64,000 bases of DNA from a virus. The DNA lies in IMG/VR virus record IMGVR_UViG_3300020202_000066, positions 25,960-89,959 of that record; one strand, 5' to 3'. The notes beneath the pieces are model-generated. The model worked only from the letters and a program-made list of their open reading frames with translations. It had not been told where the DNA came from and did no database searches. Every line of letters starts with the position of its first letter. Position 1 is the first letter of the stretch. The translations under genes and the position numbers were made by a program. Below, one piece after another: positions 15,145 to 61,312 of the stretch.

Positions 15145-15680
15145 TCATTCTGCACTCCCGCTCTCGATGTCCAGCCGGCGCGCGATCGCCTCAGCCTTCT
15201 CCTCCTCGCGCTCGTAGCGGTAGTCGATCCAGCGGAGGCGGATGGACGCAAGCGCCGACGGGATCATCGAGACGAACAGCAGCGCAAACACGAGCGGCTG
15301 CGACACGCCGAGGAAGACCAGTCCGAGCGCCGCTCCTGCCAGCCAGCGTTCCGCCTTCTCCCTCAGTGACCGCCGCTGCTCACGGTGGCGGTCACGGCGC
15401 CGCACTTGGGCGACGGCCAACTTCACCAGGGCCGAGCCGCTTCGGTCGACATTCAGATCTTGGCTCGGGGGCGCGGGGATCACGCCGTGCTCGAAGCTCA
15501 CCGGCCCCACCACCCGTCATCGGAGGGGATCTCCGGCAGGGCGGTAGCGATGAACAGTCCCGCTGCCGCGGCGCCCGCTACAGCGCAGGCGAGCTCCCTG
15601 GCAGGGCCGGCCTCAAGAAGCGCGTAGCTGCAGGTGGCCGCGCACAGGATGCACCCGAGGAGAAAGCTGATCGGGTTCAT
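15145..15680 (-). CDS. Two small membrane proteins (15498-15680; 15145-15513)
   Basis: Hydrophobic segments. Confidence 0.45.
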
Positions 15681-15726
15681 GGGTCCTCCCTTCTCGGGAG
15701 AACCCTAGCCGCGATCGAGAGGAGTT

Positions 15727-16191
15727 CTAGGGCTCGGGCGCGATCTCACTCCGGGCAGGTTCGCGCTCCGCCCCGGTCTCGGTCGAGCCGTCGGGGAACA
15801 CCACGATGCAGGGAACGCCGCTTTTCCGGGCGAAATCGATCGTGTACCACGTACCGCCGCGAGCCTGGTGCGTGGACTCGCGCGGGCAGCCGATGATGAG
15901 GTCGACACTCCGCACGATCGCCCGATTCCGAGCGAAGTGAGTGGCTGGAGGGGCGACCTCATCGTTGAAGGAGAAGCAACCCTGCCATGGGTCGCCGTCG
16001 GGACCGGGCATGGAGTGGATCCGCGGGCGCGGCTGCATCTTGTCCGCGATGGCGGCTACCTCGACGTCGACGCCGCTGCACTGCCCGTGGACGAACAGTG
16101 CCGGGCGGTGCTCCTGAAGGAGGTCGAGCACGCGCTCGCGCTGCGCAGGCGTCATCCCGTAGCGGGTTCCGGTGATTCCGATTCGGGTCAT
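15727..16191 (-). CDS. SLOG-superfamily nucleotide-binding protein
   Basis: IGITGTR, HG.C.GVD, ARNRAIV, GGTWYTI. Confidence 0.75.
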   Translation of the reverse strand: MTRIGITGTRYGMTPAQRERVLDLLQEHRPALFVHGQCSGVDVEVAAIADKMQPRPRIHSMPGPDGDPWQGCFSFNDEVAPPATHFARNRAIVRSVDLIIGCPRESTHQARGGTWYTIDFARKSGVPCIVVFPDGSTETGAEREPARSEIAPEP

Positions 16192-16489
16192 CGCTGCTAC
16201 CTCGCGATCTTGGTTTCGAGAGATCACGATAGCATGTCGTTCAGGTGGCGGTCGCTGGCCTTGGACGGCCGACGCGCTTGCACGTCACCTTGAACTTCCG
16301 GAACTCCTGGATGCTCAGCAGCTCTGGCGCGGCCGCGGAGAGGTACACGATCAGCACGTCTCCGGCGCCGACACCCACCGAGACCAGCCCACGAGTGCCG
16401 GACTTGTCCAGGCTGGCGTAGAGTTCACGTGCGGCGGTGGCGGCCGTCATAGCTCGAAGCGTACCAGCTCTGGCGGCAAGCGAACGCGA

Positions 16490-16571
16490 TGGGGCCGTGC
16501 CGAATCGAACGGCCAAGCGCGGCGGCATCTGCTCTACAGGCAGACGGTGGATCCCACTCCCCAGCAGCCCC
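16490..16571 (-). tRNA. tRNA-Tyr(GTA)
   Basis: tctgc-ctGTAga-gcaga; long variable arm. Confidence 0.8.
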
Positions 16572-16582
16572 GGGAACCGAAG

Positions 16583-16657
16583 TACCGCCAGCGGGATTCG
16601 AACCCGCACTGTCACGACTCTCGATCGTGTGCCTCTGCCAGGTTGGGCTACGGCGGC
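16583..16657 (-). tRNA. tRNA-Leu(GAG), short variable loop, C33
   Basis: cacga-tcGAGag-tcgtg. Confidence 0.75.
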
Positions 16658-16664
16658 AAGAAAG

Positions 16665-16748
16665 TACCCGGGGTGGGAGTCGAACCCACAAATGGACTCG
16701 CGTCCGCTGGGTCTGAGCCAGCTGGCTATCCCGTTCGCCTACCCGGGC
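16665..16748 (-). tRNA. tRNA-Leu(CAG)
   Basis: gctgg-ctCAGac-ccagc. Confidence 0.85.
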
Positions 16749-16764
16749 AAGATGAACCGCACCA

Positions 16765-16837
16765 TGCCGACCCGCGGGATCGCACCGCGTTCTCCCGCTC
16801 TTCAGGCGGGCGTGAGGACTACCTTCACCAGATCGGC
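16765..16837 (-). tRNA. tRNA-Phe(GAA)
   Basis: cccgc-ctGAAga-gcggg; TGC T-loop. Confidence 0.8.
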
Positions 16838-16848
16838 GAGAGATCGCG

Positions 16849-16922
16849 TGCCCGCCCCGGGATTCGAACCCGGAACCTTCCGCTTTTGAGACGGATGCCT
16901 CTACCGGTTGGACCAGGCGGGC
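16849..16922 (-). tRNA. tRNA-Leu(CAA), short variable loop
   Basis: tccgt-ctCAAaa-gcgga. Confidence 0.85.
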
Positions 16923-16927
16923 GAGAG

Positions 16928-16998
16928 CAGGCCCTGACGGATTCGAACCGCCACCCGACGGGTTGGAGCCGTCGATGCTGCCGTTACACCAAGGACCT
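16928..16998 (-). tRNA. tRNA-Trp(CCA)
   Basis: gacgg-ctCCAac-ccgtc. Confidence 0.9.
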
Positions 16999-17014
16999 GA
17001 GTGGGGAGTGCAGC

Positions 17015-17090
17015 TGGCTCCGGGAGCAGGGATCGAACCTGCGGCGGACCGGTTAACAGCCGGCTGCTCTGCCAACTGAGCTATCCCGGA
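17015..17090 (-). tRNA. tRNA-Asn(GTT)
   Basis: Canonical cloverleaf with encoded CCA. Confidence 0.92.
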
Positions 17091-17096
17091 GCGAGC

Positions 17097-17168
17097 TGGT
17101 TGCGGGCCCGGGTGTCGATCCCGGCATTCCAGGCTTATGAGGCCCGGCTGATCGCCGAATCGCCCGCA
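17097..17168 (-). tRNA. tRNA-Met(CAT), initiator-like, reduced D-arm
   Basis: ccgggc-ctCATaa-gcctgg; ends cccgcaacca. Confidence 0.75.
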
Positions 17169-17187
17169 ACGAGTTAGGGCTGGGCCG

Positions 17188-17364
17188 TCAGGCCCCGGGA
17201 TTGAGAAGGCGCAGAAGGCACCAGGCCCATGCGGGCCCGGTAAAGAGGGGGAGCCGCCACAAGTGCGGCCGTGCAGCGGGATAACGCCGAGGGACGGACG
17301 TGGTGGTCGGGAGCGCAGCACCGACCGCGGGCGCTGCCGGGCGGATCGAATGCTGTCCAGTCAT
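17188..17364 (-). promoter_or_regulatory. Putative leader ORF (58 aa) for the Met/Asn/Trp/Leu/Phe/Tyr tRNA sub-cluster
   Basis: GAGGAG RBS; 3' half contains TAT, TTG, TGGx3, CTC/CTT, TTT, CTG, AAT. Confidence 0.65.
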
Positions 17365-17435
17365 CGGTGGCTCCTCGGGGCACGTCAGGCCCTCGGGGTC
17401 GACGTAGGATCCGACGGCGGCGGTGGGTGCAATAA

Positions 17436-17506
17436 AGGCCCCAGAGAGAATCGAACTCTCGCCACCGGGTTACAAAGCCGGCGCTCGACCTTCGAGCTAT
17501 GAGGCC
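17436..17506 (-). tRNA. tRNA-Thr(TGT), imperfect stems
   Basis: ttTGTaa loop; T-arm gagag-ttcgatt-ctctc. Confidence 0.7.
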
Positions 17507-17510
17507 GAAG

Positions 17511-17582
17511 AGCCCTGACGGCGGATCGAACGCCGGTCTGCTGCTTACGAAACAGCCATCCTACCAACTGGACGATCAGGGC
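17511..17582 (-). tRNA. tRNA-Thr(CGT)
   Basis: gctgt-ttCGTaa-gcagc. Confidence 0.88.
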
Positions 17583-17585
17583 TGA

Positions 17586-17657
17586 AGCTCTCGCCGGGGG
17601 TCGAACCCGGGTTTCGGTCTTACCAAGACCGCGTGCTACCAGCTGCACCACGGGAGC
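17586..17657 (-). tRNA. tRNA-Thr(GGT)
   Basis: cggtc-ttGGTaa-gaccg. Confidence 0.88.
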
Positions 17658-17661
17658 GGAG

Positions 17662-17733
17662 TGCGGGTCGAGCGAGTCGAACGCTCTCATCCAGTTTGGA
17701 AGACTGGCATGCAACCACCAACATCTGGCCCGC
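17662..17733 (-). tRNA. tRNA-Gly(TCC)
   Basis: ccagt-ctTCCaa-actgg. Confidence 0.85.
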
Positions 17734-17743
17734 ATGAAACTGA

Positions 17744-17816
17744 AGTGCCCGGCGGGGCTCGAACCCGCGACCTCCTCGTTGGCAACGAGGCGTTCCGCCA
17801 ACCGAACTCCGAGCAC
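17744..17816 (-). tRNA. tRNA-Gly(GCC)
   Basis: cctcg-ttGCCaa-cgagg. Confidence 0.85.
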
Positions 17817-17820
17817 AGGA

Positions 17821-17893
17821 TGTGGCGAGAGGGAGTCGAACCCTCGTGACCGGATTCACAGCCCGGCGCCTGTACCGCTCGGCCATCGCCACC
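17821..17893 (-). tRNA. tRNA-His(GTG)
   Basis: ccggg-ctGTGaa-tccgg; G-1 encoded. Confidence 0.88.
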
Positions 17894-17911
17894 ACGATCA
17901 GCACTCGAACC

Positions 17912-17988
17912 TGGCGAACATGATGGGACTCGCACCCACTTTCTCCGGCGTGACGGGCCGGCGTCTCGACTGCTTCGACCTCATGTCC
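17912..17988 (-). tRNA. tRNA-Asp(GTC), C33
   Basis: ccggc-ccGTCac-gccgg; encoded CCA. Confidence 0.8.
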
Positions 17989-17992
17989 GTAG

Positions 17993-18066
17993 TTCGCCCG
18001 GAGGGACTCGAACCCCCGAAATGGCTGGGTGTAGGCCAGCTGCCTTTGCCGCTTGGCGACGGGCGA
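17993..18066 (-). tRNA. tRNA-Val(TAC), C33
   Basis: gctgg-ccTACac-ccagc. Confidence 0.82.
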
Positions 18067-18071
18067 ATGGA

Positions 18072-18142
18072 TGGAGCTCCAGGGAATCGAACCCTGATCT
18101 GCCGGGTGCAAGCCGACCGTCCTCCCGTTGAACGAGAGCCCC
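18072..18142 (-). tRNA. tRNA-Ala(TGC)
   Basis: GGGGC 5' end, G3:U70, ctTGCac loop. Confidence 0.88.
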
Positions 18143-18143
18143 A

Positions 18144-18183
18144 GAAAGAGAAACCCCCGGGCCAGGTGAGTGGTCCGGGGGCC
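18144..18183 (-). terminator. Intrinsic terminator (attenuator) immediately 5' of tRNA-Ala
   Basis: cccccggacc-loop-ggcccggggg then tttctctttct. Confidence 0.85.
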
Positions 18184-18206
18184 TTGAGCGCGCTCTTCAG
18201 TTCGCG

Positions 18207-18284
18207 CTACAGGGCGGACCACCCGCCGGCATCGACGCCGGCCGCGTGTGCGGTCGTCCCTGTGTGCACAGTGAAGAGCAGCAT
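18207..18284 (-). promoter_or_regulatory. Leader peptide MLLFTVHTGTTAHAAGVDAGGWSAL
   Basis: gatAGGAGacgaccATG; rich in T/V/H/G/A/D codons; gggtggtccg can pair with terminator arm cggaccactc. Confidence 0.8.
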
Positions 18285-18323
18285 GGTCGTCTCCTATCAC
18301 GGTCGTGGCTATCGCGGTGCAAG

Positions 18324-18395
18324 TCCTCGCGGAGAGATTCGAACTCCCAGCCGTCTGGTTCGAAGCCAGCCGCTCTTCCGCTGAGCTACGCGAGG
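18324..18395 (-). tRNA. tRNA-Arg(TCG)
   Basis: ctgg-ctTCGaa-ccag. Confidence 0.85.
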
Positions 18396-18399
18396 ATGA

Positions 18400-18472
18400 T
18401 GTACCCGGCAAGGCTCGAACTTGCGGCCGCCCTGGTAGGAACAGGGTGCTCCTCCGACTGAGCTACGGATGC
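18400..18472 (-). tRNA. tRNA-Arg(CCT)
   Basis: ccctg-ttCCTac-caggg. Confidence 0.85.
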
Positions 18473-18491
18473 AGGAGCCACACACGGGAAC

Positions 18492-18569
18492 TGGTCTGCG
18501 CGGAGGGACTCGAACCCCCGGTCTCCTGCTCCCAAGGCAGGCGCTTTCGCCAGGCTAAGCTACGCGCAG
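18492..18569 (-). tRNA. tRNA-Pro(TGG)
   Basis: cctgc-ctTGGga-gcagg; encoded CCA. Confidence 0.9.
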
Positions 18570-18572
18570 AGA

Positions 18573-18643
18573 TGCACCCACGTGGAATCGAACCACGGGC
18601 TCGGTCTTCGGAGGACCGCATCCTTCCTCTGGACGATGGGTGC
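18573..18643 (-). tRNA. tRNA-Arg(CCG)
   Basis: cggtc-ctCCGaa-gaccg. Confidence 0.88.
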
Positions 18644-18647
18644 TGCT

Positions 18648-18718
18648 TGGTGCCTCTGTCGGGAGTCGAACCCGATGGGCAGCCTTCGCAGGGCTGCCTC
18701 CAATCCCCTGGCAGAAGC
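18648..18718 (-). tRNA. tRNA-Arg(GCG), reduced D-arm
   Basis: cagcc-ctGCGaa-ggctg; encoded CCA. Confidence 0.72.
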
Positions 18719-18725
18719 ACGGAAG

Positions 18726-18797
18726 TAGGCCGTCGTGGTGCTGCCCCACGCTCCTCCGACTTATAAGGTCGGCGCTCTGCTGATGAGCTAACGGCCC
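18726..18797 (-). tRNA. tRNA-Ile(TAT)
   Basis: ccgac-ctTATaa-gtcgg; atypical T-loop ggcagca. Confidence 0.8.
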
Positions 18798-18818
18798 AGA
18801 TGGCCGGGAAGCGTGGAG

Positions 18819-18905
18819 CTATATACGCCGTCGGGGAGACGGCACCGGGGGTGGGCAGAATGGTCGCCTCGGGGCGAAGCTGGTGAGTGCGATGTGGGCG
18901 ACCAT
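18819..18905 (-). promoter_or_regulatory. Putative leader peptide MVAHIALTSFAPRRPFCPPPVPSPRRRI
   Basis: Contains AGG, CGA, CCA/CCG and ends CGA CGG CGT ATA TAG, matching the six downstream tRNAs. Confidence 0.7.
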
Positions 18906-18946
18906 GGTCCAGCGTAGCGCGCACGCGCGGTGGCTGGTGCAGATGA

Positions 18947-19033
18947 CGGAGAGCCAGAGACTCGAACTCTGACGCGGTGAACCGCCCGCCGGGTAGCAAC
19001 CGGGGCCCGATACCAGTTACGGGATAGCTCTCC
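18947..19033 (-). tRNA. tRNA-Ser(GCT)
   Basis: GGAGAG 5' end, ttGCTac loop, long variable arm. Confidence 0.88.
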
Positions 19034-19041
19034 AGGAACAG

Positions 19042-19122
19042 AGGAGGGCGGAGGTGTCGATCCCCGAGCCCGAAGGCCCCACCGTTTTCAAGACGGCTTG
19101 CCGCGCCGGCGGCGCGCCCTCC
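19042..19122 (-). tRNA. tRNA-Ser(TGA)
   Basis: gccgt-ctTGAaa-acggt, long variable arm. Confidence 0.8.
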
Positions 19123-19136
19123 AGGAACAACACCAG

Positions 19137-19206
19137 AACGCTGGCCGGGAATCGAACCCGGGCCGGTACCTTTGCAGGGCACCTCCGCGCCACGCGAATC
19201 CAGCGC
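19137..19206 (-). tRNA. tRNA-Cys(GCA)
   Basis: gtgcc-ctGCAaa-ggtac; U73. Confidence 0.8.
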
Positions 19207-19246
19207 AAAGAGAAAGCCCCCGGCGGTCCTGTGACTGCCGGGGGCT
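19207..19246 (-). terminator. Intrinsic terminator (attenuator) immediately 5' of tRNA-Cys
   Basis: agcccccggcagtc-loop-gaccgccgggggct then ttctcttt. Confidence 0.85.
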
Positions 19247-19264
19247 CTCGATCCTGCGTCGTCG

Positions 19265-19333
19265 TCAGGGCGTCGAGACTCCCGGCCAGCCGGCGCCGCG
19301 GGAACTCGACGAACAGGTGACGATGCGGATCAT
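19265..19333 (-). promoter_or_regulatory. Leader peptide MIRIVTCSSSSRGAGWPGVSTP
   Basis: gatAGGAGcagaccATG; TGT TCG TCG AGT TCC control codons; antiterminator complementarity. Confidence 0.8.
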
Positions 19334-19409
19334 GGTCTGCTCCTATCCGCGTCGGGACGCGGTGGGTGCACGCTCGGGCGATCGAAGGAGGTTCACGGGG
19401 GGGAAGAGG

Positions 19410-19712
19410 CTAGACGCCGACGGAGACGACCTTTCCCAGGATCGCGGTCCGCTTGACCCAACCGTTGATGCGGCCGATGTTGTTCCCGATGAGAGCTCGG
19501 TCTCCCTGCAGCTGCTTGACCAGATGCAAGAGGAATCCTCCACGCCAGCGGACGAACACCGCGTCTCCGACCGCTACGGCCATGGGATCGACCGGCGCGA
19601 TGGTCACGAGCTCGCCGCTCTCGATCCGGCCGCGCATCGACCCCCCGAGCGGACGAACCTTCGCGACTCGACCAGCAGAGATCTCCCGCAGCGCATCCGA
19701 TGCCCAGCCCAT
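19410..19712 (-). CDS. Peptidase S24/S26-like domain protein inside the tRNA array
   Basis: G.SM...I..GE.V..P..GD.V...LH.V motif. Confidence 0.65.
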   Translation of the reverse strand: MGWASDALREISAGRVAKVRPLGGSMRGRIESGELVTIAPVDPMAVAVGDAVFVRWRGGFLLHLVKQLQGDRALIGNNIGRINGWVKRTAILGKVVSVGV

Positions 19713-19801
19713 CGCCTGACTCCTCCGGCGACCTTCGTGCGGCCGCCACCGATGCCGGGCGAGTAGGTCGCGCGCTGCGATTCGGGTGCGCGGATCTCGA
19801 G

Positions 19802-19887
19802 AGGACCGGAAGGGGATCGAACCCTTCGTGCGCCTCGCGGCGCGACGGCTTAAAAGGCCGCTGCCGACACCAGTCGGCCACCGGTCC
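19802..19887 (-). tRNA. tRNA-Lys(TTT) with long variable arm
   Basis: gcggc-ctTTTaa-gccgt; variable hairpin gcgcc-gcga-ggcgc. Confidence 0.75.
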
Positions 19888-19889
19888 GA

Positions 19890-19960
19890 TACCCCCGCCA
19901 GGAATTGCACCTGGGTCTCCACGTCATCAGCGTGGCATCCTGCTGTTGAACGACGGGGAT
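19890..19960 (-). tRNA. tRNA-Ile(GAT), G37
   Basis: ccacg-ctGATga-cgtgg. Confidence 0.8.
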
Positions 19961-19965
19961 GCGGA

Positions 19966-20037
19966 TGAACCCGCCGGGATTCGCACCCGGATGCCCGGAT
20001 TAAGAGTCCGGTCCGTTGCTGTTACGGTCACGGGTCC
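19966..20037 (-). tRNA. tRNA-Lys(CTT)
   Basis: ccgga-ctCTTaa-tccgg. Confidence 0.85.
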
Positions 20038-20049
20038 AGAGGAGGGGAG

Positions 20050-20122
20050 CAGCTCCTGATCGTGTCGAGCGATCACCTTCCGGGTCAAAGCCGGACGTGC
20101 AGAGCCGCTACACCAAGCAGCC
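20050..20122 (-). tRNA. tRNA-Gln(TTG)
   Basis: tccgg-ctTTGac-ccgga. Confidence 0.75.
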
Positions 20123-20131
20123 GGGGGAGAG

Positions 20132-20202
20132 CAGCCGCCCAGGGAATCGAACCCCGACCCTCTCGGTCAGAACGAGGTGTGCTGCCACTACACCCGGCGG
20201 CT
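20132..20202 (-). tRNA. tRNA-Gln(CTG)
   Basis: ctcg-ttCTGac-cgag. Confidence 0.82.
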
Positions 20203-20397
20203 TCGGAATTGATCCAGCTGGTTGACGGTGGGGCGGTGAAGCGAGAGCAGCGCCTCACTCTTACCCGCCGAGCGCCCTCGGCAGACCCCTCCGCCGACCA
20301 GCTACGCCTGGCGTTGCTGGATGGGTTTGGCCCGTCCGGGCCCGGGAATGCCGGCACCCGCGACGGGCCGACGCTTGAGCAGGAAGGAGCGGAGGAG

Positions 20398-20470
20398 TAG
20401 CCCGCCAGGGACTCGAACCCTGCTTTCCTGGCTGAGAACCAGGTGTCCTGGCCGGATAGACGAGCGGGCC
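20398..20470 (-). tRNA. tRNA-Glu(CTC)
   Basis: cctgg-ttCTCag-ccagg. Confidence 0.9.
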
Positions 20471-20476
20471 ATGAGA

Positions 20477-20548
20477 TAGCCCGCCGGAGACTCGAACTCC
20501 GCTTCCCCGTTTGAAGGACGGGGGACTTCACCCATAGTCGAGCGGGCC
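20477..20548 (-). tRNA. tRNA-Glu(TTC), C33
   Basis: cccgt-ccTTCaa-acggg. Confidence 0.85.
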
Positions 20549-20674
20549 GCGAGGAACGCGAGAAGGGCCCCGAGGGGCCGGCGTTCGAGCGGACCGGTGA
20601 GCGAGGGTGAGGAGTGCATGCGCCGGCATAGCGCTGCCCGGCCGGCGCGGGTGCATGTCGAGGACGACTGCGAG

Positions 20675-20941
20675 CTACTGGCCCGTCGACGTCGGATGCG
20701 GAGGCGGGTTGGTTTCGAGGTGCTCGAGCAGCGCGCGTACTGCGCAATCCTTCGACTCGATCAGCTTCCTGAGCGCCACGGTGCGCTCCGCGCTGCCGGG
20801 GAGCATCTGGACGAGCTGGTGAGCTAGCACGCAGTACGGCTCGCTGGCCTTCTGCAAGAAGAACGGCAGGTGCGCGAAGCGGAAGAACTTCAGCAGGGGC
20901 TCGGGGGGCGGTGCCGCGGGGACTTCGGTCGTGTCGGTCAT
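20675..20941 (-). CDS. Small helical phage protein (possible Acb2/Tad1-like hairpin)
   Basis: FF.F.HLP..LQ..S...LP..AERTVALRKL.E.KDCAVRA; GAGGAG RBS. Confidence 0.6.
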   Translation of the reverse strand: MTDTTEVPAAPPPEPLLKFFRFAHLPFFLQKASEPYCVLAHQLVQMLPGSAERTVALRKLIESKDCAVRALLEHLETNPPPHPTSTGQ

Positions 20942-21452
20942 AGGCAGACTCTCCTCGTGGTCGGAGCCAGAATGACTTGGGCGTCGGTGTGAGCCGCTGG
21001 AAGCTCCCCGGCGTCAGGGCCCCGCGTGCGATGGAACCGGGTCTTGTCCCCACGGGCCTGTGCTTCGGCCAACCTCGACCGTCAGCAGCTCGGGCGAACC
21101 GTAGGCGCGCCGGGGCGCGGGCGCAAGCACTGTCAGCCGGGGATAGCGAGGGCCACCAGGCTGACGACCGCGACCGACTCCAGGATCGCGACGAAGTCGA
21201 ACAGCAGGATGGCTCGCTCCGTCGGCTCGAACGACCTTCCGTCGAGCCAACGGGCGATCAGGTACGTCACGGATACCTCCCTTCAGCGCGGCAGCACGAC
21301 CTCCGTCGGCGTGTGTCCGTTCACCAGGTAGTAGATCAGCCCGTGCCAGCCGTAGCAGTGAACGATCCACGCGAGGATCGGGATCCCGATGAGGATGAAG
21401 AGGATGAGCACGGCGGCTTCATCGGATGATTCGCCGCGTCGGTTGAGGCGGG

Positions 21453-21728
21453 TCACTTCGCATCGTCTCCCACACCGGTGAACTTCACCGAGCAGCGGAG
21501 GTGCTTGCCGGGCGTGCTGGCCCACCAGTCGTAGAGCCACGCGACGAGGGCGAACGGGGTCACGAGGAGGGCGCACACGCCGGCGACCAGCAGAGGTCCG
21601 CCGATCAGAAGGATGACCAAGAGCCACGGGAAGGCCAGCGGCGTGCAGCCGAGCGCAGCAACCCACCCCGGCCAGATCTGAAAGCCCCATCCGATCAGGG
21701 ACACGATCGCGAGCGCATATGGCATCAC
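21453..21728 (-). CDS. Small membrane protein
   Basis: Two to three hydrophobic segments. Confidence 0.5.
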   Translation of the reverse strand: MMPYALAIVSLIGWGFQIWPGWVAALGCTPLAFPWLLVILLIGGPLLVAGVCALLVTPFALVAWLYDWWASTPGKHLRCSVKFTGVGDDAK

Positions 21729-21936
21729 GTGCCTCCTCAGCAGCTACTCGTCCCCGGCCTGCGGCCAGTTGGGCAACAAGGCACTGGCCAGTGCAGTGGT
21801 TTCACCGTAGCCGAGGTACGGCCCAGCGGGGGACGGTCAGTCTCGGCGGAGGGGACCGCGACCAACTCCTTAAGGAATTGCAAATTCAGCTGGGATCATG
21901 GTTCCATGTCCGCACGGGGGGGCATTGGAGGTTCGC

Positions 21937-22893
21937 ATGACGGATCCGGGAACAACGAAAAGATCCATCTACTTCTTTCGGGTGAGGGTAGCTCCGGACA
22001 CGAACGGACGAGCACAGGAGTTCAATCCGGACGAGGCTGTGCGACGCATCGCAGAACTCTCATTCGCGCGGAACATCACCGGTGCCAGCAGCGCCTACCA
22101 CACTTACCAAGACGGTTCTGCGGTCGCTGTATGGCCCCTGCCGCAGACCCCGGCCCCGCGGGTTGGTTTGAAACTCGGGGGGCTGCGGAGGCAGAACCTA
22201 CCTCACCTTGAGGACGGTGGAAATCTTGACGCGCTGAATCTGCAGGTCGGAAAGAACTTGGCGGAGTTGACTCACATGGTCTTCTTCAAGGAAAAGAAGC
22301 AACTAATCGTGGCTTCGGAGGCCAACTTTTTTGGTCCAAGGCCAACCAGATTTCCGTATTATCTTCAGGCGAAGTTTTCGGATATGCCCCAGATCTTCCT
22401 GGAGCTGCTCGTCAATGAACACATGGCCAAGAAGTTGAACACGCTCGAGGATATCCGCCTGCTTCGCCTCAAGCTGCGACGGAGCAACGCCGATGTTCTG
22501 AAAGAGGCCAGCCCGAGCCTGGCTAAAGCCCTCCAAGCGGCATGCGAAGATGCAGACGCGCCCGTGTTCGAACTCACTCTGCGCGCCGATGAGCGCTCGC
22601 GCCAGGCGCTGAACCCTTCCTTGATCGACATGGTTAAGAACATCATCGGCTTGGGTCTTGTCGATAGAGGTAGGGAGGAGATTGTTGTCCGAGGCTATAG
22701 CAACGAAACTTCCCGAGTGGAGGAGTTCGACCTCCTAAAGGACCGCGCTGTGGTGAAGACTGTGGTCATGAAGGAGTCCGAGAAGTCTCGGAATGTTGAC
22801 TCTGAGGACATGATCTCTAAGATGATCGAGTCCTACGAGGGAGAGAAGTCATGGCTGCTGAAGGCCCCGTCGCTCGCATCACTTCGGCAGTAG
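21937..22893 (+). CDS. Uncharacterised soluble protein of a two-gene moron
   Basis: Opposite strand to neighbours, visibly lower GC, GGAGG RBS. Confidence 0.7.
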   Translation: MTDPGTTKRSIYFFRVRVAPDTNGRAQEFNPDEAVRRIAELSFARNITGASSAYHTYQDGSAVAVWPLPQTPAPRVGLKLGGLRRQNLPHLEDGGNLDALNLQVGKNLAELTHMVFFKEKKQLIVASEANFFGPRPTRFPYYLQAKFSDMPQIFLELLVNEHMAKKLNTLEDIRLLRLKLRRSNADVLKEASPSLAKALQAACEDADAPVFELTLRADERSRQALNPSLIDMVKNIIGLGLVDRGREEIVVRGYSNETSRVEEFDLLKDRAVVKTVVMKESEKSRNVDSEDMISKMIESYEGEKSWLLKAPSLASLRQ

Positions 22894-25277: not shown

Positions 25278-25844
25278 TCAGTCGACCTCGATCGCGGCGC
25301 GCAGCGTCACCCGCGCCCGACGCAGGGCCGACCGGTGCGCCCCCGAGTGAACTCCCGTCGCCGCGGTGATCTCCCGTTCCTGGTGGCGCTGGATCGGCCC
25401 GAGAATGACGGCGGTCCGCTGCTTCTTCGGCAGCATGTTGATCTTCGCCACCAACCGGGAGAGCACGTCCCGTACCTCGACGGCGATCTCCGGTCCCCGC
25501 TCCGGCCGGTCCGGCGGCTGCACACCCACAGCATCCAGGCTCTCGCACGTGGTCTGCGCAAGGCGCCGGGCCTGCCGCCGGTACCGCATCGACCGGATCA
25601 TCGCGGTGTTCAGCGCCACGCGGTAGAGCCAGGATGAGAAGAGGCTCCGGTGCTGGAACGAGGGGAGAGAGCGGTGGACCTGCAGCCACACGTCCTGCAC
25701 GGCGTCCTCGAGCTCGAACTCAACCACGTACCGTGTGCAGGCTCGCCGGACGAGCGCGACGTGACGGCGGTACAGGGACGCGAAGGCGTCGTGGTCTCCG
25801 GCTGCGGCGAGAGCGACGGCATCGTGGTCCGGGTCGGGCGTCAC
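25278..25844 (-). CDS. ECF-type RNA polymerase sigma factor
   Basis: GD.DAF..LY.RH, EDAVQDVWL, FSSWLYRVALN, region-4 HTH. Confidence 0.88.
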   Translation of the reverse strand: MTPDPDHDAVALAAAGDHDAFASLYRRHVALVRRACTRYVVEFELEDAVQDVWLQVHRSLPSFQHRSLFSSWLYRVALNTAMIRSMRYRRQARRLAQTTCESLDAVGVQPPDRPERGPEIAVEVRDVLSRLVAKINMLPKKQRTAVILGPIQRHQEREITAATGVHSGAHRSALRRARVTLRAAIEVD

Positions 25845-61227: not shown

Positions 61228-61298
61228 GCCTCCGTGGGCCAGTGGCTGGCCAGTCGGCTTCAAACCGATGCAGGCCGGTTCGATCCCGGCCGGGGGCG
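61228..61298 (+). tRNA. tRNA with UCA anticodon (opal suppressor-like)
   Basis: gcctccg/cgggggc acceptor, ggcca/tggcc D-stem, gtcgg-ctTCAaa-ccgat, gccgg-ttcgatc-ccggc; TATGCT -10-like box just upstream. Confidence 0.85.
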
Positions 61299-61312
61299 CA
61301 TAGGAGGTCCCC

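Follow-up and report, generated by a model that had tools for sequence, protein, structure and literature searches.

The trp, his, thr, ilv, leu, and pheA leaders of enterobacteria are leader-peptide attenuators of amino-acid biosynthetic operons, and in Escherichia coli the pheST attenuator, with its pheM leader, controls phenylalanyl-tRNA synthetase. Phage genes for transfer RNAs (tRNAs) are usually treated as constitutive helpers of codon usage or as spares against cleavage of host tRNAs, and to our knowledge the control of their expression is largely unknown. The window analyzed here is the whole 64,000-nucleotide stretch formed by bases 25960 to 89959 of the linear IMG/VR virus record IMGVR_UViG_3300020202_000066, which is 89,959 bp long and estimated to be 72% complete. 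It carries an array of tRNA genes on the minus strand, and the block of tRNA-Cys, tRNA-Ser, and tRNA-Ser within this array is headed by element B (19350-19207, minus strand). Its sequence and its modeled folding make it probable that element B is a ribosome-mediated (leader-peptide) transcription attenuator of this block.

The initial annotation of the sequence had read an attenuator into element B, and the parts of one are indeed present: start signals and an open reading frame (ORF), segments able to form 1:2, 2:3, and 3:4 helices, and a U-tract, with an in silico switch that falls at the control codons. All of these features lie on the minus strand. The AGGAG/ATG start context that had been described corresponds to a GGAG at 19343-19340, six bases ahead of an ATG at 19333-19331. 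This GGAG could serve as a Shine-Dalgarno site or, on a leaderless mRNA, could belong to a -10-like hexamer; the same GGAG-ATG context is found in a second cassette, cassette A, and the shared motif has two exact matches in the record. Immediately upstream is a 5' module (19344-19370) composed of TGCACC, 19 variable bases, and TA, which puts a TA-led hexamer 6 bases ahead of the ATG. The ATG opens an ORF of 22 codons and a TGA stop (19333-19265), which appears in the ORF list and which provides a short, putatively translated leader with start signals upstream of the tRNAs. Codons 7 to 11 (19315-19301) are TGT TCG TCG AGT TCC, the Cys-Ser-Ser-Ser-Ser run that had been matched to tRNA-Cys(GCA), tRNA-Ser(UGA), and tRNA-Ser(GCU). 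The run is in place and, scored by strict wobble rules, the leader holds a cognate codon for 3 of 3 tRNAs of the next block; the match did not hold for TCC.

Segment 1 (19299-19311) overlaps the Ser codons and forms the 5' arm of the 1:2 hairpin, and segment 2 (19271-19291), at the end of the ORF, can pair with either segment 1 or segment 3. Segment 3 (19233-19252) serves both as the 3' arm of the antiterminator and as the 5' arm of the terminator, and segment 4 with the U-tract (19207-19224) supplies the 3' arm of the terminator. The terminator that had been placed before the Cys-Ser-Ser tRNAs is a 13-bp GC-rich stem with arms at 19249-19237 and 19224-19212 (-33.4 kcal/mol), followed by a U-tract (19215-19207, 7 U in 9 bases) whose last base adjoins the start of tRNA-Cys at 19206. 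An intrinsic terminator thus lies between the leader and the tRNAs. A simple promoter and terminator scan returned four terminator-like sites, among which was neither the A nor the B terminator; that of B is absent because its loop exceeds the 8-nt limit of the scan.

The RNA of element B (144 nt) is predicted to fold at -79.8 kcal/mol, with a z score of -4.98, and none of 200 dinucleotide shuffles folds as well. Its competing helices have energies of -26.0 (1:2), -33.4 (2:3), and -33.4 (3:4) kcal/mol. The behavior of these helices was followed in a switch scan, in which RNA covered by the ribosome was masked and the transcript was folded up to the terminator loop. With no ribosome, segment 1, which holds the Ser codons, is predicted to pair with segment 2. 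With the A-site at codons 7 to 12, segment 2 (approximately 19291-19273) is predicted to pair with segment 3 (approximately 19252-19233) at -33.4 kcal/mol; this is the alternative pairing that the initial annotation had named, and it becomes the predicted fold once the Cys/Ser codons are masked. Once the A-site has reached codon 16, and from there to the stop, the ribosome masks segment 2 and the model allows only the terminator. The arrangement is the textbook 1:2, 2:3, and 3:4 one, and the modeled switch point coincides with the control codons. Cassette A is predicted to switch in the same manner, with the antiterminator at codons 2 to 17 and the terminator at codons 19 to the stop; its 1:2, 2:3, and 3:4 helices have energies of -55.1, -32.2, and -22.4 kcal/mol, and its structure has a z score of -4.85. 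In the models of both A and B, an antiterminator that excludes the terminator is masked by a ribosome at the stop codon. An Rfam scan of 15500-22000 at E ≤ 1 found no T-box or other cis-regulatory family beyond weak chance matches, and 0 of its 42 matches were to amino-acid operon leader families (Thr, His, Leu, Trp).

In the proposed mechanism, transcription of the leader RNA would probably start at the TGCACC-N19-TA module, about 40 nt upstream, and a ribosome would translate the 22-codon ORF. When charged Cys- and Ser-tRNAs are plentiful, the ribosome would reach the TGA and cover segment 2, the 3:4 terminator would form, and RNA polymerase would stop in the U-tract one base before tRNA-Cys. 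When they are scarce, the ribosome would stall on the Cys-Ser-Ser-Ser-Ser run and cover segment 1, the 2:3 antiterminator would form, and the polymerase would continue into the three tRNA genes. With the U-tract directly against the tRNA, another promoter would not fit between terminator and tRNA, and since the terminator stands between the promoter-like module and the tRNAs, these would be transcribed only by read-through. The net effect would be negative feedback, in which the phage makes these tRNAs when the cell reads their codons too slowly. The physiological signal may be tRNA abundance, tRNA charging, or damage to tRNAs by a host defense.

In every sequence-level feature examined and in the folding model, element B would work like a classical leader-peptide attenuator; the new part would be its target, the tRNA genes. 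It shares with the trp, his, thr, ilv, leu, and pheA leaders a translated leader, clustered control codons, mutually exclusive 1:2, 2:3, and 3:4 helices, a U-tract terminator, and a logic in which stalling gives read-through; the mixed control codons of the thr and ilv leaders resemble those of cassette A. Unlike the biosynthetic-operon leaders, element B would gate tRNAs rather than enzymes, making sensor and product the same molecule. No Rfam leader family matches it, its terminator lies directly against the mature 5' end of a tRNA, and the cassette is repeated and re-coded within one array, in a phage. The pheST system is similar in that leader-peptide attenuation controls part of the translation machinery and charged tRNA mediates the feedback, but it regulates a chromosomal synthetase gene and responds to a single amino acid. 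T-box riboswitches also let the status of a tRNA choose between terminator and antiterminator upstream of translation-related genes; they bind uncharged tRNA directly and use no ribosome, whereas the specificity of element B is carried by an ORF with start signals. In mycobacteria, one preprint reports leaderless poly-Cys short ORFs as Cys-responsive attenuators (bioRxiv 10.1101/834739). These ORFs resemble leader B in being short and possibly leaderless and in having Cys codons that sense supply and control downstream genes, but as described there they control protein-coding operons of Cys metabolism, whereas element B would control tRNA genes (10.1101/834739). Array units of tRNA genes are described from bacteria, plasmids, and phages in a 2018 paper (Front Microbiol 2018, PMC5966550), which the present array resembles in its density, its roughly 30 tRNA genes, and its location on a mobile element. 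In that paper the term "tRNA array" is counted 98 times and "attenuat" 0 times, and as far as these counts show leader-peptide control is unmentioned. A literature search found no report of leader-peptide control of tRNA genes, although subscription journals lay outside its coverage and a precedent is possible.

Element B appears, from its sequence, to be one of four or five paralogous cassettes whose codons have been rewritten to suit their own tRNA blocks. The initial annotation had recognized two, B and the element at 18144-18300, and had proposed that they were paralogues with re-programmed control codons. The proposal is supported by the sequence, and the number of cassettes is higher than two, at least four or five. 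A global alignment of A and B scores 43, compared with 0.26 +/- 5.1 (maximum, 19.5) in 1000 shuffles (z score, 8.4), with a mean column identity of 72% and a shared upstream module; an alignment of three cassettes was too poor for a covariance model. The TGCACC-N19-TA module has five matches in the window (positions 20655, 19370, 18941, 18321, and 17431), all at the heads of minus-strand blocks, where 1.9 +/- 1.3 matches were expected, and in the whole 89,959-bp record all five lie at block heads and nowhere else. In four of the five an ATG follows 5 to 6 bases after the TA-led hexamer, and in the fifth, cassette D, the ATG is preceded by a GAGGAG and both are found about 40 nt farther on. Possibly the module is a promoter from which leaderless or nearly leaderless mRNAs arise.

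The alignment also bears on the idea that the ORFs are genes for small functional peptides, each with a terminator, and that the tRNAs are expressed independently. Start signals followed by a terminator would fit a small gene, but the A and B peptides have only the initiator in common while the RNA architecture is conserved, and the lack of room for a promoter between terminator and tRNA is difficult to reconcile with independent expression. We regard this explanation as very improbable.

Cassette A (18144-18321, minus strand) consists of the 5' module, a 25-codon leader, a terminator, and a U-tract. Codons 5 to 21 of its leader all specify Thr, Val, His, Gly, Ala, or Asp, and the block behind it encodes tRNAs for Ala, Val, Asp, His, Gly, Gly, Thr, Thr, and Thr. 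At position 18246 within this leader, one low-depth contig (depth, 2.7) from the third of three soil sequencing runs has A for G, which on the minus strand exchanges one His codon for its synonym; a sequencing error is a possible cause. In cassette C (18798-18941, minus strand), the 5' module is followed by a leader of 28 codons, many of them for Pro and Arg, that ends in an ATA (Ile) codon; the cassette precedes tRNA-Ile(UAU), four tRNA-Arg genes, and tRNA-Pro. Cassette D (17169-17431, minus strand) has the 5' module, the GAGGAG, and a 58-codon ORF with Leu, Trp, Phe, Asn, and Tyr codons in its 3' half, and the block behind it encodes tRNAs for Met, Asn, Trp, Leu, Phe, Leu, Leu, and Tyr. The ORFs of C and D stop about 20 nt before the next tRNA.

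The leaders of B and D both stop at TGA. A tRNA gene at 61228-61299 (plus strand), which ARAGORN labels SeC, has a normal 72-nt cloverleaf with anticodon UCA; it looks like an opal (UGA) suppressor and could alter the reading of these two leaders.

The array head, G (20549-20655, minus strand), has the 5' module, an ATG, and a weak hairpin, followed by two tRNA-Glu genes. Its frame, which begins with the ATG at 20619, continues through both of them, and G is probably a degenerate cassette or a plain promoter copy. The same frame ends at 20302 and holds Lys, Ile, and Gln codons that match the next block. The gap between tRNA-Glu(CUC) and tRNA-Gln(CUG) (20203-20396, minus strand) has neither a TGCACC module nor a start codon; it does contain a structured RNA (z score, -3.0; equaled or bettered by 1 of 200 shuffles) that has a weak Rfam match, below threshold, to DUF3085 RNA.

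Under strict wobble rules, each leader covers the tRNAs of its own block, as the proposed re-programming would predict. Leader A covers 9 of 9 tRNAs of the next block; leader B covers 3 of 3; leader C covers 6 of 6, comprising four Arg anticodons, Pro, and Ile(UAU) through its final ATA; and leader D covers 7 of 7 plus Met, or 8 of 8 when the start codon is counted as Met. In a matrix of all leaders against all blocks, full coverage occurs only on the diagonal. Residue-level binomial tests gave p values of 2.2e-4 for A (18/24 residues), 4.5e-3 for C, 2.3e-2 for D, 5.5e-2 for B (6/21 Cys/Ser), and 0.58 for G (1/22), and Fisher's combined p over these five ORFs, which were fixed beforehand by the shared module, is 7e-6. 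Under a region-level null, in which frame and position were left free within each gap and the result was compared with random segments of the window, the p values were 0.0027 (A), 0.0053 (C), 0.0073 (D), 0.068 (E), 0.65 (B), and 0.96 (G); the joint Fisher value is 1.3e-4, and the antisense strand is not significant. The codon signal of the family is solid and that of B by itself is not; the case for B rests on its architecture and its siblings.

Coverage of this kind, with one codon per isoacceptor, suggests that tRNA species rather than amino acids would be sensed. The same attenuator could instead answer to amino-acid starvation through uncharged tRNA, with tRNA dosage being raised, or expression being timed to the state of the host, in response. 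Leader-peptide attenuators such as those of trp and his answer to the charged tRNA pool whatever lowers it, and sequence cannot separate a starvation signal from one of tRNA abundance. Additional tRNA, however, does not supply a missing amino acid, and the one-to-one coverage of isoacceptors (all four of Arg, all three of Thr, both of Gly, and Ile(UAU) through ATA) points to the tRNA species. Starvation as the signal appears unlikely, at roughly one chance in ten by our estimate.

A similar design recurs, judging from sequence, in a second phage contig that shares a gene embedded in the array, where different control codons match that contig's own tRNAs. This viral contig, G001 (locus L234; 618,736 bp), was found through the in-array 100-amino-acid ORF (19712-19410), to which its homolog has 49% identity, and it contains 55 tRNA matches grouped by amino acid. 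Its block of tRNA-Trp and tRNA-Cys is preceded by a Shine-Dalgarno-ATG leader encoding Trp-Cys-Asn-Trp-Cys and by a terminator whose U-tract abuts the tRNA; this terminator resembles those of A and B. A block of two tRNA-Gln genes likewise has a terminator and U-tract abutting the tRNA, behind a Shine-Dalgarno-ATG leader of 10 codons with four alternating Gln codons. In silico, the Trp/Cys and the Gln elements both switch with ribosome position as A and B do. Ahead of a block of three tRNA-Glu and two tRNA-Asn genes lies an ORF with five Glu and three Asn codons together with a hairpin. Two minus-strand blocks of G001 have no terminator and an ORF that continues into the tRNA: one of two tRNA-Asp and three tRNA-Val genes, with five Asp codons followed by Val, and one of tRNA-His, with a His-rich ORF.

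The recurrence was also assessed with a mechanical filter, adjusted solely so that it recovered A and B, which required a hairpin of -18 kcal/mol or lower within the 55 nt preceding the tRNA and 6 or more U among the final 12 of these. It passed 2 of 8 blocks in the window, 2 of 30 in G001, and 1 of 6 in metagenome locus L260 (a block with no ORF); no block passed in G002 (0/17), metagenome locus L254 (0/10), the contig L292 of a Schlesneria metagenome-assembled genome (0/9), Variovorax phage V45v66 (0/4), or Mycobacterium phage Bonray (0/2). All four passing blocks with an ATG-initiated ORF rank high among the blocks of their contig by enrichment of that ORF (1/8, 2/8, 2/30, and 1/30), the 2/8 rank arising from a block cut short because default ARAGORN misses its tRNA-Asp. 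This result bears on the possibility that a promoter-terminator cassette was simply copied along the array and that the codon matches are coincidences of GC-rich sequence. The cassettes are paralogues, the region-level values for single cassettes are modest (0.0027 at best), and G001 was at first over-read by eye. Even so, the two combined p values, the flat antisense control, and the architecture-defined test, in which each of the 4 ORFs places its own block first or second, leave such a combination of chance and duplication highly implausible.

Several observations weigh against the attenuator reading of element B and its relatives. Within B, the block's tRNAs read only four of the five codons of the run, TCC being unread under strict wobble. 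The codon content of B alone is not significant (binomial p, 0.055), its p value lies between 0.28 and 0.78 if the frame and position within the 203-nt gap are not fixed, and GC-rich frames often contain Ser and Cys codons; by itself the match is weak. Cassettes C and D lack a canonical terminator and have no significant structure (z scores, -1.17 and -0.37), and G has a single Glu codon. The TGCACC module does not fit the sigma-70 consensus, and its role as a promoter is a guess; a scan of 16300-20900 with that consensus found no promoters. Extra tRNA would bring no relief from amino-acid starvation, and a benefit requires that tRNA supply itself be limiting. In G001 the good leaders were first chosen by eye, and among all 30 blocks 4 had p < 0.05 (Fisher, 0.065), compared with 3 of 30 on the antisense strand, in a best-8-codon test. 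Five other tRNA arrays are without cognate leaders; none was seen in G002 (24 Rfam tRNA matches), in metagenome loci L254 and L260, in the Schlesneria contig L292 and three Gemmataceae loci, or in Variovorax phage V45v66 and Mycobacterium phage Bonray. The ORF-terminator-tRNA design is not a general property of tRNA arrays. Finally, the searches described below found no homologous array, and the comparisons available for element B are its paralogues and the analogues in G001.

The search for relatives covered several data sets. A blastn search of the array against phages and plasmids gave matches to single tRNAs only, and a BLAST search of element B against G000, G001, and G002 returned only the match to itself. 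In IMG/VR viral contigs the shared start motif occurs in 119 stretches, with tRNAs at none beyond the two loci of this record, and the terminator motif in 109 stretches, including five loci with one or two tRNAs each and no array; neither motif was found in metagenome contigs. The portal protein had no relatives in viral contigs, the large terminase had at most 23% identity to cultured phages by tblastn, and a flanking 166-amino-acid protein was found at two loci, both without tRNAs. Among the sequencing runs that hold the sequence no RNA run is listed, and the three DNA runs, all soil metagenomes, yielded identical contigs or fragments and no diverged relative.

Part of this evidence would fit ordinary or factor-controlled terminators that insulate blocks of tRNA genes, with partial read-through or Q- or N-type antitermination and with small ORFs that are incidental. 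Strong terminators are certain, the phage has its own sigma factor (25278-25844) and would on this account reprogram transcription, the codon content of B is not significant by itself, and C, D, and G lack the full anatomy of an attenuator. Insulation leaves unexplained, however, why a ribosome at the stop codon masks the 2:3 helix in both A and B, why full tRNA coverage falls only on the diagonal (Fisher p, 7e-6), and why the same design occurs with Trp/Cys and with Gln codons in another phage. A Pfam scan of 22 ORFs, most of which had no family, also found no antiterminator gene. We consider insulating terminators unlikely, though the least unlikely of the alternatives to leader-peptide attenuation.

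The window has a G+C content of 65%. In the same Pfam scan it was found to encode a Mu-type portal, a tape-measure protein, two integrases, ThyX, and the sigma factor, and it also encodes a large terminase and a major head protein. Between 16490 and 20548, ARAGORN identified 29 minus-strand tRNA genes, to which Rfam together with a relaxed ARAGORN run added four more: tRNA-Lys(CUU) at 20037-19966; tRNA-Asp(GUC) at 17988-17915, in which C replaces U before the anticodon; tRNA-Ile(UAU) at 18797-18726, with an atypical T-loop; and tRNA-Arg(GCG) at 18725-18652, which scores 21.5 bits, under the Rfam cutoff. The last three are missed by default ARAGORN, and the anticodons of two of the added tRNAs were read by hand from their printed sequences. 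The array thus totals 33 tRNAs, split into blocks, with all 20 amino acids represented. The block behind element B spans 18945-19206 and consists of tRNA-Cys(GCA) at 19206-19136, tRNA-Ser(UGA) at 19122-19041, and tRNA-Ser(GCU) at 19034-18945, all found by both ARAGORN and Rfam. A further tRNA at 19801-19887 (minus strand) has the anticodon UUU (Lys) in an 87-nt body with a long variable arm, which is unusual for a Lys anticodon; Rfam classifies it as tRNA-Sec, at 51.3 bits against a cutoff of 47 bits. Just downstream of the array, an ORF at 15727-16227 (minus strand) has a weak PHROG match to a GTP-binding domain (E value, 5e-8) and a weak match to the SLOG/YspA family (E value, 0.03).

The 100-amino-acid protein encoded within the array (19410-19712, minus strand) has sub-threshold similarity to Peptidase_S24 (E value, 0.008) and no match in PDB. 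Its homologs lie within or beside tRNA genes in two other viral contigs, and 18 of 35 metagenome loci with a homolog contain tRNAs; the loci concerned with this protein are L122, L241, and L244-L357. Genome contigs gave 541 matches, the best of which are from Gemmataceae (74% and 69% identity), and at three Gemmataceae loci the homolog directly follows a tRNA-Ser/tRNA-Arg pair. The protein may be the product of a gene associated with tRNA arrays. The Gemmataceae matches hint at a candidate host of the phage; an actinobacterial host, assumed early, was dropped.

More broadly, some phages may run their tRNA genes through programmable, codon-matched attenuators, with the array acting as a homeostat of tRNA supply for each block; we hold this wider view tentatively, at slightly less than even chances. 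Each block would then be equipped with a promoter-like module of its own and with a leader containing a codon for every isoacceptor encoded behind it. There may also be a second type of leader, with an ORF that continues into the tRNA and with translation that competes with tRNA folding and RNase P processing; candidates are the Asp and His leaders of G001 and cassettes C, D, and G, which end within about 20 nt of a tRNA or inside one. If the attenuator reading is true, element B would be the first case found in which the transcription of tRNAs is set directly by how fast ribosomes move over the particular codons that these tRNAs read, which would close a feedback loop on the decoding capacity of the cell. 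The leader would be a readable signature that spells out which tRNAs are sensed, so that when a phage needs its tRNAs would become directly testable, and the cassette would offer synthetic biology a compact, re-codable sensor of the supply of individual isoacceptors. The device would turn on just the tRNAs missing from the infected cell, whether these were never present in the host, were lost as host RNA was degraded, or were cleaved by a host anticodon nuclease; against such a nuclease the device would serve as a sensor-coupled counter-defense.

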